A stretch of DNA of 63,993 nt, filler included, from Craspedostauros australis (taxonomy: Eukaryota): NCBI GenBank assembly GCA_030167865.1. It is 7 parts of 7 records of this genome, joined end to end, with 100 filler letters (N's around TTAATTAATTAA, not from the genome) between each part and the next. Parts side by side here need not be neighbours in the genome. Positions count along the whole stretch, not along the records: positions 52,768 to 62,171 come from JALAGF010006500.1; 6 more parts are not named here. One strand, 5' to 3'. This document shows positions 41,829 through 62,271 of this stretch, piece after piece. Made by a program: the position numbers and the translations under genes. The stretch's first letter is position 1; every line of letters starts with the position of its first letter. The notes beneath the pieces are model-generated. The model ran no database searches, had not been told where the DNA came from, and saw only the letters and a program-made list of their open reading frames with translations.

Positions 41829-42081
41829 TGCAAACGTGCACAGAACATCATGTACAAAGTTACAAACAGACAGCCACGTGCTTAATGTCCATAGCATCCC
41901 ATCACCCTCTCCTAAAGCAACCGTAGAGTCGGTACTCATGAACTACTACTCTCCAGAGTATTACGACCTCGCGCACGTACATTCTTCCATGGAGTGCACG
42001 GATACGAACACAAGTCTTCGAGAACCATGGTCGCAAAGGTCCCCCCTTCGAACTCTCGCCCATTCTATTTCTGTTCATGTT

Positions 42082-42771
42082 AGTTGAGATTCAATGAGGG
42101 ACAGACCATTACCGAACACGGTATCAACCCGATGGGAGAAATTCTTGTTTTGGCGCGAAATCTTCCGACTTGATCGACCACCAAATCTTTTCTCCTCCTT
42201 CCTCTCCTCCATTCACGAATCCATCACAACTCAAACCTGACCGACCTGACTCACACCCCACCTGGGAACTATATGCTCTTCAGATCCTCCTTACTACAAC
42301 ATACCTCGATTCNNNNNNNNNNNNNNNNNNNNNNNNNNNNNNNNNNNNNNNNNNNNNNNNNNGTATCCAACTTGCTTCAACTCAAGCAATGGAATCCGAG
42401 GGTCAGCTTCAGCCACAGCCACTGCTTCATGACCGTCACTACTGATTGTCATGACCTACACTGCAGTGTAACTACATGTGCGGAGAGCAAAGCACTGTAT
42501 TGATTGTCTACTCTGTTGCACTGAATCAAGTGCATCAGTGCAGGGTCTTGCCAAGTTGTGTGGCATCGTTTCTTCACCCTACTAACACCAATAAGCTAAC
42601 TCATAATAACAGACAAGGATTAGCTACAAAGCACTCTACTTCTCATCGTTACAAGTTATAACTCTTCAAACAGTACACCTCTCTTGAACTGCACCACACG
42701 GCTATCCCGAAGCCGGCAGATTCACGAGGCATTCTCCACCGATTCGTGACGCCTACGCCCGAATCCTAACT
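42082..42771 (+). mobile_element. Solo LTR of the CoDi-like copia family, AGTT...AACT termini, 5-bp TSD ATGTT
   Basis: ATGTT|AGTTGAGATTC ... CCTAACT|ATGTT; near-identical to 49587-50271. A 50-N gap lies inside. Confidence 0.88.
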
Positions 42772-43023
42772 ATGTTCAAGCTTCCAAGTATGCGCATTAA
42801 ACTTCGATGCGGTGAGATGAGCCAGAGATGGCTTTCAGAACAACTGCTGATACTGCGAGGACCCTCTGCTCACTCGGAGATCACCCTCCAGCACACAGCT
42901 ACATGCACGAAGAGCACGATCGCTAACGAGAGCACAAGCCGTGTTGGCCATGGGGATGGTGTGGCGGATTGTTGCAAAGATTGGAGGGAAAATACACAGA
43001 GAGGCTGGACGTTCCGAGAATTA

Positions 43024-45050: not shown

Positions 45051-45302
45051 CTGTTGGTTGTCCTGTTGGCAATTGAATGACTGCATGGGTTGGTTGGGTT
45101 GCTGGCGATGTGCTTTGGTTGTTTTGTATGATGGTTGTTGAGGTATGGTGCTTATGAGGAGAGCTTCTGCGATGGCAGAGTCGTTGACGAAGGCAATTGC
45201 TANNNNNNNNNNNNNNNNNNNNNNNNNNNNNNNNNNNNNNNNNNNNTTAATTAATTAANNNNNNNNNNNNNNNNNNNNNNNNNNNNNNNNNNNNNNNNNN
45301 NN

Positions 45303-48300
45303 GGGTCTCTCTACGAAGCATGCTTCAACCGTACCTCTAGTCCTATCACCACGGACAGGTTCAATCACCCCTCAGTTCCACGTCGTATTCGATGACTGGT
45401 TCGCAACGATTGCTACCGACTTGAAGCAACTTCCAAGCTATCAATCGGAAGAATGGACTCGCATGTTTGGTNNNNNNNNNNNNNNNNNNNNNNNNNNNNN
45501 NNNNNNNNNNNNNNCAATGGAGCAGGACGACATCTTCGCATCAGACACGCGAGACCACAACCGGTTACAACGCAACGACGATAATACTCCACCACCGAGA
45601 ATTGATACGCGAAACCAACAAACCATCCGTGAAAGAGCGCCACAGGTATTGGCGAAAGAGTCGCAACAAACGACGCAACAGATCCCCGATCTCATGAGTG
45701 AAGTTCTCGCCCCTCCGATGCCAGTTTCAGAGGGAGCCAACAGGCAAATGTCTTCGACAGAGGGAGCTCCCGACGAGTCCCCGGTACCTGACTCTACTAT
45801 AGAGTCACCGGATCAGCGAACACTTCAACCGCAATTGAGTTCACCTCTCCGAGAGTCGCCAATTTCAGAACCGGCAACTCCATTACCACCTTTAGCTCCG
45901 ACGCCAATTGAGACTAAGTCCACGACAACAACTACGCCGAAGCCCGAGTCAACGCCAACAAGACCTCGAAGCACGAGAAGTCGCAAACAACCAAAGCGAT
46001 TCACGTATGCGCGCATGGGAGGCAAGGCCGCATGGTTGGACGACGAGGACACCGACGATTACTACTTCTGCCCCGCAGTAGCTACCTTGGAAGAAATTGA
46101 ACAGGACGCAACACCCAGGGAACTGCACCCCGACTCGTCATCGATCATCACATTCTCACAAGCTATCGTCGATTGCTTACATACAATCGAACCTCTCCAA
46201 CGCAAAGGTAGCGACTCTCTCTCCATCGATCTACACCAATTCAAGGTGGACGCTCACTACTTGTTGCGCAGACTTCGAGGTCGATTCAACACTTTGAATC
46301 CACAGCCAACCAACGTTGTACTTCCAACGTTCGCCCCAAAGGCAGCTCAAGTAGAAGAAGCAAGCATCAACATGGCTGACTGGTGGCAACCGGACCCCGA
46401 CGACATGACCGAGGAAGGAGCGACTCCATTCCAGGAGACGTACAACAACTTCCACTCGGACATGGAGGATCACTTCGAGAAAGACCTCAACAGCGTCTTT
46501 CTCGACGAAGACCTCCTCCGACTGGCCACCGACCACGCCGTCGAACAGTTCGTGGAGAAGCTGAGTACCTTCATCAGCACAGGCACGATGGAACCCCGCT
46601 TTGACGCTCTCGACTTCATGTCCAAGGCCAAATCAGGGCCATGGTACTACCAAGATCCCGAGCACTTGATGAACCAAGGGTACCTTCCACCCAAATCTGC
46701 GTACAGCGCAGAAGCGTTCGTCCAAAGGACTCGTTCCGTGTGGAACGCGATGATCGAGAATCATCACTACCGTCTTGCATTCGAGCTACTCCGTCGCCAG
46801 GTGACGACGATCCGACCAGGACCGTGGCTACGTCCAAGCGAATATGAGGTTGAGCAGTTCGTCCAAGGCATGATTGAGTCGAACACGGCGCCACTCACTT
46901 CGGCCCCAGCGACTCGCTCTGCCAACCAAGGATTCATGCTCGACATCGACTCATCATCCACGCTCGACATCAATCCGTCATTCATCCTCGACACAGCGAA
47001 GTGCATTCCACCAACCACATGGGCGAACATCGAGCAGCATGCCTACTCCGTCGCAATCATCGAGCCACAGAAGGATGCAACAAACTTCCCCACCTACGTC
47101 GATAATCGCATGATGAGCTACTTCGCCGCAGGTGGCGACTTGGATATCGCCGAACGCACCTCGGTGTATAAGGCATCCAACACCGATCCGGACACCCTCT
47201 CCTTCGACGAAGCCATTCGCGACGACAACAAGGACGAGTGGATGCAAGCCGCCGAAAAGGAGATTCGAGATCTCACGGAAAAAGGCACGTGGGAGGAAGT
47301 GAAGAAGATCGACGTCGTCAACGATCGCATCTTTCCAGGAACCTGGGTCTTTCGCCGCAAGCGCCTTCCCGACGGAACCATCAAGAAATACAAGGGACGC
47401 TGGTGTTGCCGTGGAGACCTCATGCAAGAGGATGCCTCCACCTACGCACCAGTCGTCGCCTGGTCATCCGTCCGCATCTTCCTCAGCACTTCCATAGTCA
47501 TGGGTTAGACAACAACGTCCATCGACTTCACGAACGCTTTCGTGCAAGCATCCATCCACAAGCCAGTTTACCTTCATCTCCCTCGCGGATTCAAGTCAAC
47601 GAAGGGTCCCGACACCTGCCTCAAGCTCCGCAAGAGCCTGTACGGCTTGACGATTGCTCCTCGCCTCTGGTATGAACATCTCATCCGAGCCCTCACAACG
47701 ATCGGCTTCAAGGCCTGCGATCANGAGCAGTGCNTGTTCATCAAGCAGGACATNATGATCGTCCTCTACGTTGACGATGCGGGCATCGCCTCCAAGACCA
47801 AGCAAGCCGCCGNCGACTTCATCAAGTCAATGCGCGACCTCGGCTTTGAGCTCACCCAAGAAGGAAGCTTCACCGAGTTCCTGGGAATCGAGCTCAGCCG
47901 TGATCCAAAAGCAGACACGGTCCATCTCCGCCAGCCAGGATTGATCAAAAAGATCCTCGCAACCACGAAGATGGCGAACTGCAGTCCGTGCCCCGTACCA
48001 ACTACGCAGCTTGCACTGGGACAGTGCAAGCATGAGCCTCCCATGAACGAACCATGGAACTACCGCTCCGTCGTCGGCATGCTGTTGTATCTCACGACCA
48101 ACACTCGCCCCGACCTGGCATTCGCAGTCTCCCAAGTCGCTCGCTTCGGAAGTGANCCTCGCCGCTCACACGCCAAGGCCATCAAGCGCATCATGCGCTA
48201 CCTCAAGCACACTGAGGACAAGGGCACCATCGTGCGTCCCACCGGGCAGCTCGATCTCAAGTGCTACGTGGATGCAGACTTCGCAGGACTCTACAGACGA

Positions 48301-48709
48301 GAGGACAGCAAGGACCCCGTCTCCGTCAAGTCGCGCACTGGTTATCTCATCACATTGGGAGGGTGCCCACTCATTTGGAAGTCCAAACTCCAAACTGAGA
48401 TTGCTCTATCTACGATGGAGTCCGAGTACGCCGCTCTCTCTCTCTCGCAATGCGCACGCTGATTCCNATCCAACAGCTCATCCGCCAAGTCATCAACAAC
48501 GCCGGCACCAACATGCCGCTGCACACCAACCTACAGTGCACTGTGTTTGAGGACAACCAAGCCTGCATTTCCCTCGCTACCAATCATCAACCAACCGCGC
48601 GCACTAAACACTTTCTGACTAAGTGGCACTTCTTTTGGTACTGGGTCAAGGCAGGGTTCATCTACATCCAGCACATCGCAACACCGGAGCAACTGGCCGA
48701 CATCTTCAC
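45303..48709 (+). mobile_element. Ty1/copia (CoDi-like) pol: integrase C-terminus, long spacer, RT and RNase H; in-frame TAG at 47506 and a frameshift near 48440
   Basis: HASTVPLVL...PQFHVVFDDWF; WVFRRKR..KYKGR; DFTNAF; SLYGL; LYVDD; YVDADFAG; EDNQACI; QLADIF. Confidence 0.95.
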
Positions 48710-48844
48710 NNNNNNNNNNNNNNNNNNNNNNNNNNNNNNNNNNNNNNNNNNNNNNNNNNNNNNNNNNNNNNNNNNNNNNNNAACAAACAACAACGAAGGA
48801 TGAAGTTTTCATCGATACCACAACTCCAATCACGACCCAACACT

Positions 48845-49057
48845 GAGAGGGAGAGTTGAGATTCAATGAGGGACAGACTACTACCGAACACGGTATCAAC
48901 CCGATGGGAGAAATTCCTGTTTTGGCGCGAAATCTTCCGACTTGATCAACCACCAAATCTTTTCTCCTCCTTCCTCTCCTCCATTCACGAATCCATCATG
49001 ACCCAAACCTGACCGACCTGACTCACACCCCACCTGGGAACTATATGCTCTTCAGAT
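48845..49057 (+). mobile_element. Polypurine tract and start of the 3' LTR (48854, runs into a gap)
   Basis: GAGAGGGAG followed by AGTTGAGATTCAATGAGGGAC, identical to the LTR at 49587. Confidence 0.88.
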
Positions 49058-49586
49058 NNNNNNNNNNNNNNNNNNNNNNNNNNNNNNNNNNNNNNNNNNN
49101 NNNNNNNAAGCTGTTTGACAGCTTTCGCTGTACTTCTTACTGCTATATCTACTATTCGTATTCAGCGAAATGCTGATCGGAGATTGTCCTCAGACAACTC
49201 ACAATGAAAGACAAGAGGTCCGACCAGGGCACACAACAACGGGCCGATAAGTCTCCAGTATCGTAGTTGCTTGTGCACTTTTGACGCCCAGCCTGCCAAT
49301 TTGCCGCGTTCTTGCGCCTTTTGCCTATTTCGCTGTCGCTGCCTCAAATCAACCACTATCAACGCCCTCTCATCCATCCACCAAGATTTTCATTGTGGTT
49401 ACATCTGCACAGTTGGATGTTGCATTGGACTGATCGTTGGTGCAATACGGACATGGCAGGTGCGGTCCTTGCAGAGTCTGGATTGATTCCCCCATTGTCG
49501 TTTGCAGACTGCGTACGGTGCAGTTGTGCCTGCTCGTCCTCGTGCATTGACTTGGCTTGTCGTGGTGGATGCCGAAAGGTGGATGT

Positions 49587-50271
49587 AGTTGAGATTCAAT
49601 GAGGGACAGACTACTACCGAACACGGTATCAACCCGATGGGAGAAATTCCTGTTTTGGCGCGAAATCTTCCGACTTGATCAACCACCAAATCTTTTCTCC
49701 TCCTTCCTCTCCTCCATTCACGAATCCATCATGACCCAAACCTGACCGACCTGACTCACACCCCACCTGGGAACTATATGCTCTTCAGATCCTCCTTACT
49801 ACAACATACCCCGATTCCTTCATGCTGATGATCACCACACTACTACCGTGGTCTCAACATGAGTATCCAACTTGCTTCAACTCAAGCAATGGAATCCGAG
49901 GGTCAGCTTCAGCCACAGCCACTGCTTTATGACCGTCACTACTGATTGTCATGACCTACACTGCAGTGTAACTACATGTGCGGAGAGCAAAGTACTGTAT
50001 TGATTGTCTACTCTGTTGCACTGAATCAAAGTGCATCAGTGCAGGGTCTCGCCAAGTTGTGTGGCATCGTTTCTTCACCCTACTAACACCAATAAGCTAA
50101 CTCATAATATCAGACAAGGATTAGCTACAAAGCACTCTTCTACTCATCGTTACAATTATAACTCTTCAATCAGTACACCTCTCTTGAACTGCATCACACG
50201 GCTATCCCAAAGCCGGCAGATTCACGAGGCATCCTCCACCGATTCGCGACGCATACGCACGAATCCTAACT
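49587..50271 (+). mobile_element. 5' LTR (685 bp) of a CoDi-like copia element
   Basis: Same ends as the solo LTR; followed by a PBS and gag. Confidence 0.9.
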
Positions 50272-50288
50272 GGTAGCTGCGAGTGGTT
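50271..50288 (+). promoter_or_regulatory. Primer-binding site, probably for initiator tRNA-Met
   Basis: TGGTAGCTGCGAGTGGTT resembles the tRNAi-Met complement TGGTAGCAGAGGATGGTT; its first T is shared with the LTR end. Confidence 0.7.
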
Positions 50289-50699
50289 GCCAAATACTCT
50301 CTTATAAACTCCACCGAGCATCTTCCTCTGCCAACCGATCGCAAGAGTCTCTCTGAGACGAAGCCAAAAGGCACAGCTCGCAAAACCGAGCCTCCATCAA
50401 AGGACCACGTCCTTATCGCATGCATCTGATCTGAAATCAGACCCCAACGCTCGAAAACCGAGCCACTCACGAGGACAAAAGTCCCAGCTGAAGGTAAGCG
50501 ACCCAAGGTCGGACCTCAGTAGCCTCTGCCAAAGCAAGCAATAACCGCACTCGCCGACCGAGTGCCAGCCTCCCCAAGCCTGCATCGAACTTCAGTGCAC
50601 ACCTTCCCAACGAAGTGAAGCCGAGCAAGAGCAAGAGAAGGCAAACAGATCGATCCCCTCGAAGTCCGAAGACCACTCGAGAAGTCCCCGTCATCCATC

Positions 50700-52667
50700 A
50701 TGGCGGAAGAGACAACAACTGCCACGCTGGAAGAGCTGCAAGCGCAGCTCGAAGCGATCACGGTCGAGAACGCTCGCCTNACACAGGCGACGTTGGCGGC
50801 CGAAGCCGCTGCAGAAGCAGCGAACGCGGCCATAGCCACTGCCCAAGCAGCGGCGACAGCCACCACGACCCCAAGCCGTCCCGGTCTCGAGCGCAGCCGC
50901 TCCGCCGGCGACACAAGACCTCGAACGGAACAGTCCTTCCTCGGCGACAGCATCTTCGACATGGAAACTCCCATGCCCAAGAAGAGCAGAAAGTCAGAAG
51001 AGGACAGCGAAGACGACGACCACGACCTCTCCGGGAAACCAACCGTTCCCATCATGGGAGGCATCCTCAAGCAAGGACGCAACTGGGTACCCTGGACCGC
51101 AGGTGCACCAAACGGACATTGGACCGGCCTCCAAGACGAGTCACACACCAGGTGGACCAACTCTCAACAACAGAGAATCCTCCACAATGGTGCTGACTCC
51201 ACCAACCAGTCCAAGCGAGAGCAAGGACTCACCGACAAGTTCAAGAAAGGAGGGAACATCCAGCAGTTCATCNNNNNNNNNNNNNNNNNNNNNNNNNNNN
51301 NNNNNNNNNNNNNNNNNNNNNNNNNNNNNNNNNNNNNNNNNNNNNNNNNNNNNNNNNNNNNNNNNNNNNNNNNNNNNNNNNNNNNNNNNNNNNNNNNNNN
51401 NNNNNNNNNNNNNNNNTTCCATCTGAAGTGGGATCACTACGACGTCCAGAACAACGAGACAGCCTCAGCGTTCTTCCGTGACAGTCTTGATCCAGTCCTC
51501 GAAGATCAGCTCATGAACCGAATCGAGCCAAAGTTCCACGATAATTTCATCACTCTCTTCGTTGAGTTCATGAATAGCAACTCGGCCAACTCCTTGGATG
51601 AACAAGACGCCCTCGCAGCCAAGATCCGCGAAGTCAACTGCAGACGTTTTCCAAACGAGAACGTTGGNNNNNNNNNNNNNNNNNNNNNNNNNNNNNNNNN
51701 NNNNNNNNNNNNNNNNNNNNNNNNNNNNNNNNNNNNNNNNNNNNNNNNNNNNNNNNNNNNNNNNCAGGCTGGAGGACAGATCCGGTCTGGTGAACAGTAC
51801 CGACGTCCTCTCTATGTGATGAAGGATAGCCTTGAGGAAATCCTCATGCGCCTCCCCGTCTTCACGTACGAGTACGCTCGCCCCCAGCTTGCCGCAAAAG
51901 ACCTCACATGGATGGCAATCTGCAACAAGGCCGAGNNNNNNNNNNNNNNNNNNNNNNNNNNNNNNNNNNNNNNNNNNNNNNNNNNCGCAAAAGACCTCAC
52001 ATGGATGGCAATCTGCAACAAGGCCGAGGCGTCGTACGAAAACGAAGTGCGCGGAAATCGCTGGCATGCTATCAGGCGTACCAGAGATAGCAACGTGCCC
52101 AAGTACTCGTACGCCAACAACGTCGTCCAAAATCCAAGCGCCAACGTCCTCGAGCAACACAAGGGTTTCTCCAAGAACGATGGAAAGAGAAACAACTTCA
52201 AGAAGCCCAAGGAACGCGACGCCAAACGCAACNNNNNNNNNNNNNNNNNNNNNNNNNNNNNNNNNNNNNNNNNNNNNNNNNNNNNNNNNNNNNNNNNNNN
52301 NACGTTCATGTGGTGCGCCAAGTGCCGCCGCTGGCGTCTCTCGCACAACACCGAGAGCCACCAGGACAACTTCAAGTTCAAGGCGAAGGCTAAAGGCAAG
52401 CAAGTTCCCAAACAGGACAACCTCTCCATTGACATGGCTGCGTGGACATGCTTCACAGCCGCCTCCAGTCAAGACGAAGACACCTGGTGGTCTCTCGTCT
52501 GGAACCTCTTCACCTCCTTCAACTACTTCGGTAGCATCGCTGGAATGGTTCTCCTCTTCGCCTCACTCCAAGTCATCAGCATTGGAGTAGAGTATGGGTG
52601 GTACATCGCGGCAGCTAATGCCTGGATGCTAATCGCCGTAACTCTACTACTCCTCCACACGAACGTT
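50700..52667 (+). CDS. CoDi-like Gag (gapped, runs off the contig)
   Basis: ATG downstream of the PBS; coiled N-terminus; WCAKCRRWRLSHNTESH zinc knuckle of the diatom copia type. Confidence 0.82.
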
Positions 52668-52767
52668 NNNNNNNNNNNNNNNNNNNNNNNNNNNNNNNNN
52701 NNNNNNNNNNNTTAATTAATTAANNNNNNNNNNNNNNNNNNNNNNNNNNNNNNNNNNNNNNNNNNNN

Positions 52768-54832
52768 CAACCGAGTGCGAATGGGAGGAGTGGATCGCAC
52801 AGAAAGGGGATTCGGCGGGAATGCAAGGGTTCTACCGGTCAGGAGAGAAGGGGCGGCGGCATCAAGTACACGGTAAAGAGGTCAGATTGCGGGAGGCGCG
52901 AGGCAGAGTGTATGTCGTCGAAGCCGGACCCTACGTCGAGGACCGCGCAAGCGTACAAGCGAGCGACCAAGCAGAAGCGGGCATGGCAGAATGGGTGCAA
53001 GCCGTGAAGGAAGGGAATGCTGTGATTAGCACCGATGGCTCCTTCAAACACGGCCGAAGCACAGCCGCGTTTTCACTCAATGTGCGAGGACAGCGAGCAG
53101 GGTGCTTCCAGATGGCCGGGCCAGTAGCAGGGCGAACGGAAGTGCAGAGCGCCTACAGGGCAGAGCTGGGAGGCATATGCAAAGCTGTCGAGACAGCGCG
53201 AAGGGTGCTCCTACAGTATGATCAAGAATGGCCAGAGAGCGCGGCAATCGTGGTCGCGTGTGACAATCGCATGGCAGGAATCCACGCAGTGGAGTTCGAC
53301 AGAGATGTGCCAGTCAAAGTGCAACACTTCGACATACTGCGAGCGATCCGCAGAGAGCAGCGACTCATGCCAGTGAGGCTGGTGTACAAGCATGTGTACG
53401 GGCACCAGCTGGAACGAGCGCGCGGCGTGAAGGTCGACGAATTCTCCTACTGGAATGATGATGTCGACAAGCTGGCAGGAGATGCTCAAGGCAAGACGGC
53501 GCAGGATTATGACGAGGAATGGCATGACAGCGAGTGGTCCGTGTGGGTCGGCGGCAATAAAGTGTGCATGAGCACCAAGGATATGCTGAGGTCGTATGTG
53601 CAGCGACAAAAGACTGAGAGATGGCAAGGCAGCACGGCAAAACTGAAACGTGACGCCATGGACGATTTGGATGGCGACGCAGTTAAAGCGGCAGTGGGCA
53701 GTTTGGGAGCGAACAGAAGACGATGGGTGGTGAAACATGCGGCGCACTTTGGCCCAGTGGGACGGAATATGAAGAAATGGAAGTTCTGGAGCGACAGCTT
53801 GTGCCCTGTGTGTAAGGCTGAAGAGGAGACGACGGCCCATGTGATGCAGTGCCAGCACCCCGCGGCAGTGCAAGTGCGGCGGTCGGCGATGGCAAAATGG
53901 GAAGACGAGATGATGGAGGCCAACGGCGAACCCTATATGGTGCGAGAGATTGTGCGGCAAGTGCGAAAGTGGACGGAACGGCAGGACGTCGAACCTGAAG
54001 GCTGGTCGGAGGTCCATCGAGCAGCAACGGCCCAGCAAAGGATCGGATGGGATAAAATGGTTCTGGGGAGGTGGTCCAGGCAGTGGCGGCAAATACAAGA
54101 GGGCGCCATTCGGAGAGGCAATCATCGCGGCACAGCCAAAGGCTGGATCAGCAAGGCTATCCGAGGGTTGTGGGACGTGCGATGGGCCGCGTGGCAGGCC
54201 AGGAATCAGGCGCTGCACGAGAGTGAGGCATGGGCCAAGCAGACAGAGCGAGCTCGGAAAGCCCGTGAGGATGTGGCTAGGGAGTGGCGGCGAGGCAGCA
54301 GCGGGCTTCTAAGGCCGGATCGCGGTTTACTGACGAACACGTCCGAAGAGCAAGTTCGACGAATGACGGTTGAGGAGCAGCTCGCTTGGGTCAGACACGT
54401 GGTGGCGGCAAGGGTCGGAGCGGCAGCCAGCCGGGACCAGCAGGCGGAGGCCAGAAGTGAGAGGTCGCGTGCGGACGGCGCAGCGAGGATATCGGGAACG
54501 CATGCAATGCGAGACAGTGAGGGACGGAGGTTGAAGAGGAAGCGTGGGCGCGGGTCCAAGTCTCAGGAGGCGACACGCAAACGAGCGAGGAGGAGACGCG
54601 GGAATGCATGATGATTTTAGTGAAGAGCACGGCGGATGTGGAATCGGGTGCCCAGTGCGGTATGTTCTATGTGACCCATGGTGATGGCAAACAGTGGAAG
54701 ATGAGGAAGTGAGATCCTTATAGAAGTCGTTCTTGCGCGGTCGGCCGTTTAGGCTCGCCGTATGCAGGCGACTATAAAGCCTTCGAGGCAACCTTGTGCG
54801 CAAGGGATAGTCAGTGAGTTATTATTATTATA
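52768..54832 (+). mobile_element. 3' portion of a non-LTR retrotransposon (Ambal-like): RNase H, zinc finger, 3' UTR and (TTA)n tail; ORF stop at 54611
   Basis: ISTDGSFK, SAYRAELGG, ACDN, HVYGHQ and NDDVDKLA (RNase H); CPVC..EETTAHVMQC; W..RN..LH; ends TGAGTTATTATTATTA. Confidence 0.87.
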
Positions 54833-58599: not shown

Positions 58600-61073
58600 A
58601 ACAGAGCTCAGCACATGAAGCATGCTGTGAGAGACGCAGAGGGGCTGTTCGATGTAACCCCCATCGCGAAGTGGATCTGTTACCCAACATCACGACGATC
58701 CTCAGCATGGCACAGCACATGCAAGCACATTTTCAGAGAGGGAGGCAAGGTGTGTGCAATGCCATCTCCAACACAGAACATCACACACCACAACAAGGCC
58801 AGAGATGGGTGGGCGCGGGCGAATGTGATCGTCACAGCAAGATGAATCCGTTGCGGTTGATCACCCTGCACACACATGAACACGGCACATCCAACGTGAG
58901 CACATGGCGAGAGATAGAGGGGCGCTGTGATAGGCGATTCTCTCCTTGGAGCGAGAGAGTCTATCCTGAGTTTGGATCACGTTGCATGTCATCAATGCAG
59001 ACCAGCATAGGCCAATCCATGCAAACCAACCACACGCGACTACTAGGTCAGAGATGGATGGACGCTATTGCATATGATCCTCANNGCACAGCAACTGGAG
59101 ATGCGGTTGGGTCACCCTACGCAGCACCAACATAGCATAGCACAGTTGGCACATCACATTTGAGCACACATGGTCGCGTGTGGAGAGGCGCTCTCTGATA
59201 CAATCACAACTGCGAAGTGGATCACCCTGCATATGGATCACACTGAGCATGGATCACCCAGCACAGGCCGCCACAACACATGACATCAAGTAAAAGGCCA
59301 AGAATGGGGGACACTGTTGGATGCGATCCGCGATGGGCAATGAATGAGTTCATACAGAGGTCGCCACGCAGAGGCCACCATGCATATCACATCCAAGTAC
59401 ATGGTCGGATATGGAGAGGCACTCTTGGATGTCATCACAACTGCACAATGAAGGATCAACCTGTGCACCATCCATGCAGCCCATCACATGCGAGTACATC
59501 ACTCGTGGAAAGATCACAAACGAGCACATGGTCACAGAGGGATGGGTGATGTCGGATGCTACCTTTGCTGCAAAGCGAATTTGCTGTGCTTGGACCACCT
59601 TGCGCAGCGGCAACGCAGCATCAGCATACACGAGCACATGTTCAAAGATGCGGAGACGAGTTCGGATGTGATTGTTGCTGCAAGTGAACCGCGCCGCGGT
59701 TGGAGAACCCGGCGCAACACACTCGAACACATGGTGGGTGGTACATGGAGGGACGCTGTGAGCTGTTGATGTGATCCTCACCGCAAGGCGAATCCAGTGT
59801 GAGTTGGATCACCCAGCGCGCACATCGAGACAGGTCACCACGCACAAGCATTGGGTCGGAGATGCAAGGGCGCTGTCAGATGTGATTGTCACTGCAAAGT
59901 GAATGGCCTTGCGCATAGATCACTGTGCACACTGCCAACAAATGCCATCACACGCGAGAATGCTAGAAACGAGCACATGTTTGGAGGCGGGTGGACACTG
60001 CCAGGTGCCATCTCCGCTGCGAAATGAATCTGCAACGGTTGAATCACCATATGCAACATCAACGCAGCACACCGCACGCGAATGCAGGGTCAGAGACGGG
60101 TGAACGCTGTCGCATGTAATCCTTGCTGCAAAATTAATCATCTGCGGTTGGATCATCTGCGGTTGGATCACCCTTGGTTGGATCACCTGACCCACCACCA
60201 GCACAGGATGTCACGTGTCAACACATCACATGCGAGTGCNNNNNNNNNNNNNNNNNNNNNNNNNNNNNNNNNNNNNNNNNNNNNNNNNNATCACAAACGA
60301 GCACATGGTCACAGAGGGATGGGTGATGTCGGATGCCACCTTCGCTGCAACGTAAATTCGCTGTGCTTGGACCACCTCGCGCAGTGGCAACGCAGCATCA
60401 GCATACACGAGCACATGTTCAAAGATGCGGAGACGAGTTCAGATGTGATTGTTGCTGCAAGTGAACCGCGCCGCGGTTGGAGAACCCGGCGCAACACACT
60501 CGAACACATGGTGGATGGTACATGGAGGGACGCTGCGAGCTGTTGACGTGATCCTCACTGCGAGGTGAATCCAGTGTGAGTTGGATCACCCAGCGCGCAC
60601 ATCGAGACAGGTCACCATGCACAAGCATTGGGTCGGAGATGCAAGGGCGCTGTCAGATGTGATTGTCACTGCAAAGTGAATGGCCTTGCGCATAGATCAC
60701 TGTGCACACTGCCAACAAATGCTATCACACGCGAGAATGCTAGAAACGAGCACATGTTTGGAGGCGGGTGGACACTGCCAGGTGTCATCTCCGCTGCGAA
60801 ATGAATCTGCAACGGTTGAATCACCATATGCAACATCAACGCAGCACACCGCACACGAATGCAGGGTCAGAGACGGGTGAACGCTGTCGCATGTAATCCT
60901 TGCTGCAAAATTAATCATCTGCGGTTGGATCATCTGCGGNNNNNNNNNNNNNNNNNNNNNNNNNNNNNNNNNNNNNNNNNNNNNNNNNNTCTGCGGTTGG
61001 ATCACCCTTGGTTGGATCACCTGACCCACCACCAGCACAGGATGTCACGTGTCAACACATCACATGCGAGTGC
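58600..61073. repeat. Degenerate satellite with a 777-bp higher-order duplication (59513-60239 vs 60290-61073) and a 15-bp TTGGATCATCTGCGG sub-repeat
   Basis: Constant 777-bp offset with SNPs; recurring GAGCACATG and GGATCAC motifs upstream. Confidence 0.75.
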
Positions 61074-61549
61074 TTGGGGAGAGATGGAGGGATGTTGTTG
61101 TATATATATATAACTCATGGATTAGACTGTTACTGTGGCAGTCTGCGCCGTAGGCGCTTTTACGCCGCCCGCTTTATTCTCGTGTGGAGCACGAGGCAGC
61201 ACGGCACTATCAATTCATATGCATGTATGCGCTAACCGGTCGTCGAGTCACCCGTGAGATCCTCCTCGTCGCCCCCGCATCTGATTCGTATGTATCTGCT
61301 TGTGTAGTTCTTTTTCTTGTGTTTTCTGTTTGTCGATGGAACCGGTGGCTTTGTGCCAGCACCTTGATCGGCGAGTGCGTCGCCGTGGCTGCGTCGGAGG
61401 CGTCGGTGAGCCTGGAGCCTCGTGCGACGTAGCACTACGATCATTTGCGGCGTCGTAGCCAGTTGCGTACCTCTGCTGGAGCATGATCTGCCGGCAGTCC
61501 ACGCACGCGCTGCACTTGCCCGATCCACACGGCCACTGTAGCGATATCG

Positions 61550-61999
61550 TGTCAGAACAGGTATTTGTATCTAGACAGTAGCAGTTTCGACTAAGGTGGC
61601 CTGGTAGGCAGAGCGGTTCGATTCCGCAGCACCTTATGTCGTAACATGGTAAGGTCGCGGGTTCGAGTCCTCGAAAACATCATGCCTTGTTGGCGACTGG
61701 GACGAAATGCCGTCTCCCTACAGCGGGAGGATAAACATAGAGTGTGAGCGGTCTGACTACGTAGCCGGAAGGGCTGGTAGGGGCTGAAGGGCTAGTCTAG
61801 TTACCAATAGGAAGGGTGTCAGAACAGGTATTTGTATCTAGACAGTAGCAGTTTCGACTAAGGTGGCCTGGTAGGCAGAGCGGTTCGATTCCGCAGCACA
61901 CTACCATGTCAAAATAGCGCGCTGCGGAATCGAACCACGGAGCCAGTCCACGCCCTGCATGAACACAAGAAATTAACGCTTATAACCCATGTCGCGACA
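61550..61999 (+). mobile_element. TRIM-like non-autonomous LTR element with tRNA-like LTRs and a 6-bp TSD ATATCG
   Basis: TGTC...GACA termini; TSD at 61544-61549 and 62000-62005; 83-bp identical repeats at 61550 and 61817; TGGT after LTR1 (61647); PPT AATAGGAAGGG before LTR2. Confidence 0.8.
61584..61645 (+). ncRNA. Predicted tRNA-mimic structure: acceptor-like stem, short hairpin and T arm, with no anticodon arm
   Basis: GTTTCGACTAAGGTG pairs with CACCTTATGTCGTAAC; GCCT-GGT-AGGC hairpin; GCGG-TTCGATT-CCGC T arm containing a perfect B box. Confidence 0.55.
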
Positions 62000-62271
62000 A
62001 TATCGGTCGCTCCGCGGCCATCTAGAGTCAGCTGCGCCCATTCCGCGTCCTGGTAGCTCTGCTCCTGGCCCTCCTCCTGTAGCCGCTTCGCGTAGTCTCT
62101 CACCATCTGCCGCAGCTCAGCCTCGGGCCCTTGATCACTGTGGTGCATGGCTTGGTTCCTTTGGTACCAGTNNNNNNNNNNNNNNNNNNNNNNNNNNNNN
62201 NNNNNNNNNNNNNNNTTAATTAATTAANNNNNNNNNNNNNNNNNNNNNNNNNNNNNNNNNNNNNNNNNNNN

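Follow-up and report, generated by a model that had tools for sequence, protein, structure and literature searches.

The window, by which we mean the whole stretch of 63,993 nucleotides from Craspedostauros australis (assembly GCA_030167865.1) that was analysed, carries near its end (61550-61999) a mobile element of 450 bp that starts with TGTC and ends with GACA. This element is very probably a terminal-repeat retrotransposon in miniature (TRIM) of the Helenus/TRIMp3 kind, and the tRNA-like module in its long terminal repeats (LTRs) is unusually reduced. The end of this tRNA look-alike matches the element's own primer-binding site (PBS), which is why we think that the element may supply its own primer for reverse transcription, in the form of the CCA-tailed module; we put this slightly below an even chance. 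The most far-reaching form of this idea is that a TRIM family of diatoms and other marine protists encodes in its LTR a mini-tRNA primer of 40-44 nt, which is processed at its 3' end, CCA-tailed and annealed to the PBS, that stem and PBS co-evolve in each family, and that the chimeric right-hand end of the copy in the window is the fossil of a priming event. We give it a probability of roughly 0.4.

Three lineages bear on this reading: the family of the element itself (R), a sister family (Y) whose LTR lies inverted at the right-hand end of the element, and an element from marine metagenomes (L002/L003). The module of R (44 nt) consists of a 6-bp closing stem, AAGGTG/CACCTT, a D-like hairpin, a T arm, GCGG-TTCGATT-CCGC, and an unpaired A; the modules of L003 and Y measure 42 and 40 nt. 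The 6-bp closing stem and one unpaired A are present in the minimum free energy (MFE) fold of all three modules, and the R module also forms the D-like hairpin and the GCGG/CCGC T stem. The anticodon-less tRNA that had been drawn from the sequence alone for the first LTR, with the same closing stem, unpaired A and T loop TTCGATT, is therefore recovered in every part. A block of 15 nt in the T arm is identical in all three modules which, together with the arm that they all lack, indicates that the modules are homologous and were not captured separately. The window has four occurrences of the B-box motif GGTTCGANTCC, all of them within the element; 0.18 are expected in the window, and none of 100 shuffles reaches four. 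Box A (TGGCC..TGG) and box B (GGTTCGATTCC) of R agree with those of Helenus (TRGCY..YGG and GGTTC), while box A of L003 (TGGCA..TGG) and of Y (TGGAC..TGG) shows one deviation each. Directly past the unpaired A (0-1 nt downstream), the L003 element and the Y LTR have their only run of four T, which is also where such a run stands behind a tRNA gene. ARAGORN calls no tRNA in the window or in L002 and L003, so that the module, whose anticodon arm is missing, is not recognizable to a tRNA finder as that of Helenus would be, and none of the six Rfam matches at E<=10 in 61300-62170 is a tRNA. The folds of R and L003 also hint at the stem of a possible second tRNA-like unit, made of the LTR tail and the sequence past the second T arm.

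The pairing of the module with the PBS was evaluated by computing the duplex between the module with CCA added and the first 30 nt after the LTR, and by comparing it to 1000 shuffled PBS regions. The duplex of R reaches -32.8 kcal/mol (shuffled mean -15.5, equaled by 0/1000), with a run of 9 pairs anchored at the 3' end of the primer; that of L003 reaches -30.5 kcal/mol (mean -13.2, 0/1000, 8 pairs) and that of Y -24.0 kcal/mol (mean -16.1, 17/1000, 10 pairs). The CCA contributes about 7.4 kcal/mol to the energy. The proposal that the 3' end of the module plus CCA is complementary to the PBS is thus upheld: nine contiguous pairs stand at the start of the PBS of R, and the pairing resumes after bulges. 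When the best ungapped match to the PBS is sought within the LTR, the module site ranks first of 91 in R and first of 87 in Y. The bases that follow the unpaired A in the DNA are TGT in R, ATT in L003 and TTT in Y, never CCA, which means that the TGG of the PBS can pair only with an added CCA. R and Y, which reside in one genome, have PBS with different starts, each of which fits its own LTR. All three PBS open with TGGTA, and the implied primer has U72 and A73, which we take to be the pattern of initiator tRNAs, not of elongator tRNAs.

The third lineage comes from a metagenome scan, whose pattern was built from the T arm and the LTR/PBS joint and which returned three loci. L002 and L003 come from two marine metagenomes but represent a single locus, with 2/390 bases different between them. 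The element has the same plan as R: LTRs of 113/114 bp that start with TGTTAGAAGG and end with TCTAACA, the same T-arm block, TGGTAACGATCGTGGGTTCGTATCC immediately past the LTR, and the purine run AAGGGAGGG ahead of the 3' LTR, in the position equivalent to that of the R tract. The scan pattern forced only ACATGGTA; the rest of the resemblance is unforced. L003 has no target-site duplication and its two LTRs differ, which shows that it is an old copy, and none of the seven open reading frames (ORFs) in its flanks has a Pfam family. Its second LTR (2200-2313) has lost the closing stem (GACGTG faces TAACTT) and its T arm is altered, as fits an old, decaying copy. The third locus of the scan, L001, contains no tRNA according to ARAGORN and was judged by eye to be unrelated. 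Of four viral scans, three returned 0 loci and one returned 1 (L007), which was likewise judged by eye to be unrelated. Three loci came from a scan of prokaryote genomes; according to ARAGORN, a tmRNA covers the L004 match and a tRNA-Ile stands beside the L005 match, while L006 has no call.

An alignment of four rows from the three lineages was used to follow both helices. All the stem cells are paired (34/34), whereas the fraction falls to 29-56% when the partner strand is slid by 1-3 columns. The closing stems read AAGGTG/CACCTT in R, GACGTG/TACGTT in L003 and GGCGTG/CGCGCT in Y; one of the six pairs of this acceptor stem is invariant, three have changed on one side and two on both. Between the 3' strand of the module, with its A, and nucleotides 4-10 of the PBS, 89% of 28 cells are paired (15-71% in slid controls), and two of the seven pairs have changed on both sides. 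The covariation between stem and PBS for which the sequence-only reading had asked to test is therefore seen in part: both helices are kept in two further lineages, with two pairs in each changed on both sides, but the comparison covers only three lineages.

The right-hand 183 bp of the element is not a single LTR, as had been supposed from the sequence alone, but a composite, in which the start of the Y PBS joins a truncated R LTR to an inverted Y LTR. Accordingly, of the two LTRs that had been delimited, the first (61550-61646) is confirmed by a contig that diverges at its end, while the second shrinks from 61817-61999 to 61817-61899. The Y LTR, 93 bp on the minus strand (61999-61907), runs from TGTCGCGACA to TTTTGACA and is followed by TGGTAGTGTG (61906-61897); the family model matches 61907-61999 with 66.4 bits (E 1.3e-17). 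In canonical Y, a T-arm-like block comes after the ten bases that follow the LTR; in the window, the reverse complement of the R LTR stands there instead. The 6-bp duplication is identical at both outer ends, from which it follows that the R/Y composite integrated as one piece; an origin of the chimera by a nested insertion followed by a deletion was rejected on the same ground.

The position of the R/Y joint, at the start of the 3' strand of the R module and at the end of the 10-nt Y PBS, is a hint of priming: this is where the duplex between primer and PBS would end, and the inverted orientation is that which priming predicts. The 3' end of an R-type module may have annealed to a Y PBS, with extension or read-through as the next step. 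Such a module would have belonged to a longer R RNA, given that all of the R element is found upstream of the joint. The chimera favors the idea that the 3' end of the module can prime over that of a host tRNA primer. As a separate observation, the segment 61860-61960 is predicted to fold into a hairpin of -48.7 kcal/mol (z -6.0), in which the T arm of the R module faces the inverted Y module; Rfam returns only sub-threshold miRNA-precursor look-alikes at this place.

We propose that the module would be freed as a small RNA. In Y and L003, the four T that follow the unpaired A could act as a signal like a polymerase (Pol) III terminator, and in R the module would be cut from a longer transcript. 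The RNA would be trimmed at the discriminator and receive CCA, after which its 3' end would unfold and anneal to the element's own PBS, by 8-10 contiguous pairs including CCA:TGG, and over most of the 30 nt with bulges. A reverse transcriptase lent by an autonomous element would then extend this primer. A candidate for the donor is the copia-like family of the window, whose termini are similar and which also has a 6-bp duplication.

The boundaries of the element and its features (Table 1) were compared to contigs of one sequencing run, X1, which contain a fraction 0.43 of the query words; this run may be of RNA and may be from the window's own sample, and two further runs, X2 and X3, gave no contig along the window. 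Record 1 reproduces 61617-61899 with 0 differences and goes on with CTTATGTCGTAACA: the same internal region leads there into a normal 3' LTR of 97 bp, so that the full 97-bp form exists at both ends. In record 2, the tail of the 5' LTR is present through 61646 and unrelated sequence follows, which makes 61646 the true end of the LTR. Record 3 covers 61897-61999 at higher depth, and is preceded by different sequence. Records 4 and 5 diverge after 61999, where the consensus agrees at just 0.62, which indicates more than one flank. The depth and the alternative flanks show that the last 100 bp are part of another repeat, one of greater abundance. Both 61646 and 61999 are true repeat ends.

Table 1. 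Features of the 450-bp element and of its insertion site (positions along the window).
Feature	Position	Strand	Basis
Left target-site duplication, ATATCG	61544..61549		direct reading; identical hexamer at 62000-62005
5' LTR of family R, 97 bp, TGTC...AACA	61550..61646	+	first 83 bp recur at 100% at 61817-61899; X1 record 2 diverges directly after 61646
tRNA-like module without anticodon arm	61593..61636	+	MFE fold; stem in three lineages; B box 61615-61625; no ARAGORN or Rfam tRNA call
PBS region: TGGTAAGGT pairs with the module 3' end plus CCA, then second T-arm-like block	61647..61676	+	B-box match 61660-61670; duplex prediction
Remaining non-coding internal region, with degenerate module pieces 61746-61765 and 61771-61781	61677..61808	+	repeat families D2, D3
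Polypurine tract AGGAAGGG adjoining the 3' repeat	61809..61816	+	direct reading
3' LTR of family R, cut off at 83 bp, with 100% identity to the 5' LTR	61817..61899	+	X1 record 1 carries on with the normal tail CTTATGTCGTAACA
Sister family Y: first 10 bases past the LTR, which read TGGTAGTGTG on the minus strand	61897..61906	-	R joint inside CAC 61897-61899; canonical Y continuation in X1 record 3
Complete inverted Y LTR, 93 bp; own module 61915-61954, then TTTT	61907..61999	-	family model; X1 records 3-5
Right target-site duplication, ATATCG	62000..62005		direct reading

The assignment to the TRIMs rests on several observations: short terminal repeats that share their orientation, a small size, no coding capacity (the longest stop-to-stop frame wholly within the element has 66 aa, 61591-61791, minus strand), a PBS beside the 5' repeat, a polypurine tract beside the 3' repeat, a target-site duplication, and insertion at multiple sites, since X1 contigs (records 2, 4 and 5) exit the LTR ends into different flanks. 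The direct repeat is of 83/84 bp with 100% identity (61549-61632 against 61816-61899). In the 5' LTR of R, it is followed by the tail CTTATGTCGTAACA up to 61646, and the PBS start, TGGTAAGGTCGCGG, comes immediately after, so that TGG are the first bases past the 97-bp LTR. The outline given by the sequence-only reading holds in this respect, with regard to the TG...CA ends bordered by the 6-bp duplication ATATCG (61544-61549 and 62000-62005), and also to the layout: there is a perfect repeat of 83 bp, TGG opens the sequence past the 5' LTR, and a purine tract precedes the 3' repeat. The canonical form of R is computed to be about 364 bp long, against 450 bp for the copy in the window. In the internal region, the piece 61746-61785 consists of a T-arm-like block (75% identity) followed by GGGCTGGTAGG, which hints that it originated when the module was duplicated. 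There is no second copy in the window according to blastn, whose strong matches are those of the element against itself only; the family model R1 gives three matches with E<=1e-10 in the window, all of which are source sequences or overlaps, and the six others have E>=2.9.

Precedents exist for some of the steps that we propose. mascRNA, from MALAT1, is a tRNA-like small RNA that is cut from a longer transcript and CCA-tailed, and the reverse transcriptase of the Mauriceville retroplasmid starts at a 3' tRNA-like CCA. The module would putatively resemble the former as a tRNA-shaped RNA that is no tRNA and is processed by RNase P, RNase Z and the CCA-adding enzyme, and the latter in that a CCA end is used in reverse transcription, but neither is an LTR element with a PBS that matches the mimic. 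Self-priming of the Tf1 type uses as primer the 5' end of the genomic transcript, after a cut by RNase H. The present case appears to differ: what the PBS matches is the 3' end of an LTR module shaped like a tRNA, not a known transcript start, and the PBS begins with TGG, which requires untemplated CCA. What it shares with Tf1/Sushi, Tcn1 and the TAR copia elements (Houba/Osr-1) is a PBS that matches the element's own LTR-derived RNA and not a host tRNA; such self-priming lineages are documented in the part of Neumann 2019 that was available (PMC6317226).

The closest relatives are the Helenus elements, which are TRIMs with a tRNA-like sequence in their LTRs, with box A TRGCY..YGG and box B GGTTC (Kojima 2024, PMC10886601; this and the following statements are based on portions of the paper and of its supplement). 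The likeness is extensive: both are short, non-autonomous LTR elements, each of whose LTRs contains a sequence derived from a tRNA and, behind it, a T run and a short tail, both have boxes A and B, a PBS and a polypurine tract, and LTR starts of the TGTTAG type are also present in the fungal Helenus consensus sequences of the supplement. On the other hand, Helenus is found in fungi, animals and plants and has duplications of 4-5 bp, whereas the host here is probably a diatom or marine protist and the duplication is of 6 bp. Here, the tRNA-like part has shrunk to about 44 nt and has no anticodon arm. The PBS is complementary here to the LTR module, whereas for Helenus, in the portions seen, no complementarity of the LTR's tRNA-like sequence with the PBS could be found in any family, and Pol III transcription is stated to be unvalidated (PMC10886601). 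A motif look-up in the supplement found the generic B box 15 times, and no occurrence of Bacillariophyta, Stramenopiles or Phaeodactylum, nor of the 15-nt T-arm block. Cassandra is also a TRIM whose LTR sequence derives from a Pol III gene, but this is 5S rRNA sequence, not tRNA-like; it is known solely from plants, and the same portions describe no link between its small-RNA part and priming (PMC10886601). Among the papers listed by full-text literature searches, none is on a tRNA-like primer encoded in an LTR, or on such a TRIM in diatoms.

A number of observations weigh against the self-supplied primer. The fold energies of the modules are ordinary (z = -1.7, -0.2 and +0.7 for R, L003 and Y). 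The gap between the A-box-like motif and the B box is about 6 nt here and far wider in tRNA genes, which makes the use of Pol III uncertain, and the run of four T is absent from family R. The covariation values are reached by 34 of 500 shuffles, which is the floor for so few rows: with three lineages, covariation statistics cannot be strong. The ungapped 7-mer test puts the module site of L003 only third, because the L003 PBS has one extra base, and the TGGTA of L002/L003 is not independent, the search pattern having demanded ACATGGTA. Compared by eye, the two L003 LTRs disagree at about 9-10 of 113 positions, and the second one is without the stem. Pairing energy fails to separate cognate from foreign partners: the L003 module gives -33.3 on the R PBS, against -32.8 for the cognate module, and on the Y PBS it has an anchored run of 10 (three G.U, hand count). 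Perfect pairing spans 8-10 nt, beyond which bulges and G.U pairs are needed, and the long duplex is largely made of two near-palindromic T-arm blocks that oppose each other. A PBS that is recopied from the module in each cycle should match it over about 18 nt, and it does not. Last, the chimera is a single copy, no X1 contig crosses its joint (61899/61900), and the complete U3 at both ends is unaccounted for.

The shortness of the perfect match is also what speaks for an unlikely, more conventional explanation, in which the element is an ordinary TRIM of the Helenus type, the module is the relic of a Pol III promoter, and the PBS binds a host tRNA from which both derive or which both match. 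A hypothetical tRNA ending in CCGCGACCTTACCA could match the R PBS over about 14-15 nt. However, a canonical tRNA complementary to the R PBS would carry A as base 61, a position at which tRNAs almost always have C, and the presence of R and Y in one genome demands two host tRNAs, both with A1:U72. The homology of the modules, shown by their missing arm and shared T-arm block, also speaks against separate captures, and their stems and PBS starts differ in step. A host tRNA primer is nevertheless the conclusion reached for all Helenus families in the portions of Kojima 2024 that we could use (PMC10886601).

Somewhat less probable in our opinion is that the complementarity acts in cis, without CCA, either as a U5-PBS hairpin that controls the access of the primer or in self-priming of the Tf1/Sushi/TAR type. 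When module and PBS are in one RNA, R and L003 are both predicted to form a long imperfect hairpin of the same topology (R -40.4 kcal/mol, z -2.5; L003 z +0.15), which is the reason for considering a role in cis, and the chimeric joint would look identical, as TGG would template CCA. Tf1 has its complementary bases at the very start of the transcript; those of the present element form the 3' end of a module with the shape of a tRNA, at 8-14 nt upstream of the PBS, so that a cut at the module end would leave a template of only 8-14 nt for strong-stop DNA. TGG and the T opposite the unpaired A have no role in a cis hairpin, yet occur independently in R and Y, and the four T directly past the A in two of three families suit a separate short transcript. 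That priming from the LTR by complementarity to the PBS is established for Tf1/Sushi and predicted for Tcn1 and TAR (PMC6317226, in part) argues for such an arrangement. Finally, an artefact or a chance composite, be it the mis-assembly of repeats in a fragmented draft or tRNA debris unrelated to LTR elements, is very improbable. It is true that the contig of the element is just 1.2 kb long, between an N gap and a scaffold linker, and the single copy in the window and the uncrossed joint would fit with it; but the 6-bp duplication lies exactly at both ends, X1 (maybe the window's own sample) reproduces 61617-61899 without a difference and canonical ends with other flanks, and a homologous element with the order LTR-PBS-PPT-LTR (PPT, polypurine tract) is found in metagenome contigs.

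Regarding the genomic context, the sequence-only reading placed the element in a LINE whose reading frame would be restored by excision. After excision in silico, each of the three frames of the minus strand is open through the joint (105, 142 and 90 aa), and the restoration of a frame therefore proves nothing; none of the six flank translations matches Pfam at E<0.01, which leaves the host LINE unsupported. Only one feature of the scaffold hints at a LINE: a zf-RVT match below threshold, on the opposite strand at 52716-54611. The 6-bp duplication had also been considered atypical. It is probably normal in this genome, as a copia-like solo LTR in the window, at 42078-42772 (TGTTAGTTGAG...CCTAACTA), has a 6-bp direct repeat, TGTTCA, on both sides (42072-42778), and its termini resemble those of the TRIM. 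The solo LTR is a candidate relative of the helper element. The copia-like family with which it is grouped (LTR TGT(T)AGTTGAG...CCTAAC(T)) has an RVT_2 ORF at 47509-48462, and one of its LTR copies is followed by TGGTAGCTGCGAG and a gag-like ORF. It is a candidate helper, with a PBS that differs from those of R and Y. Its pieces at 45259-52715 include an LTR (49585-50271), then TGGTAGCTGCGAGTGG, and a gag-like ORF from 50619. They may be tandem elements that share an LTR, or an effect of scaffolding, and TGGTAGCTGCGAGTGG is a PBS-like start, perhaps for initiator tRNA. Elsewhere in the window, an ORF for an MFS transporter has Bacillariophyta as the commonest phylum of its nearest Atlas clusters, which agrees with a diatom host but does not prove it. 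Linkers of the form N44-TTAATTAATTAA-N44 join scaffolds at six sites (e.g. 62172-62271, 52668-52767), and neighbors across a linker are consequently not truly adjacent. A stretch of 84 bp is present at 60156-60239 and at 60990-61073 with 100% identity, beside N gaps, and is probably a redundancy of the assembly.

The known LTR elements are primed by a host tRNA or, in a few lineages, by the 5' end of their own transcript. If our reading is true, a dedicated gene for a tRNA-shaped primer, carried in the LTR, would be a third solution to the priming problem, and it would give a role to the tRNA-like sequences of TRIMp3, which the paper describing them, as far as the portions available go, judged uninvolved in priming (PMC10886601). 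Even without the idea of the primer, the results extend the Helenus-like elements to a probable diatom and a marine organism, and the element flags a source of tRNA-like debris in such genomes.

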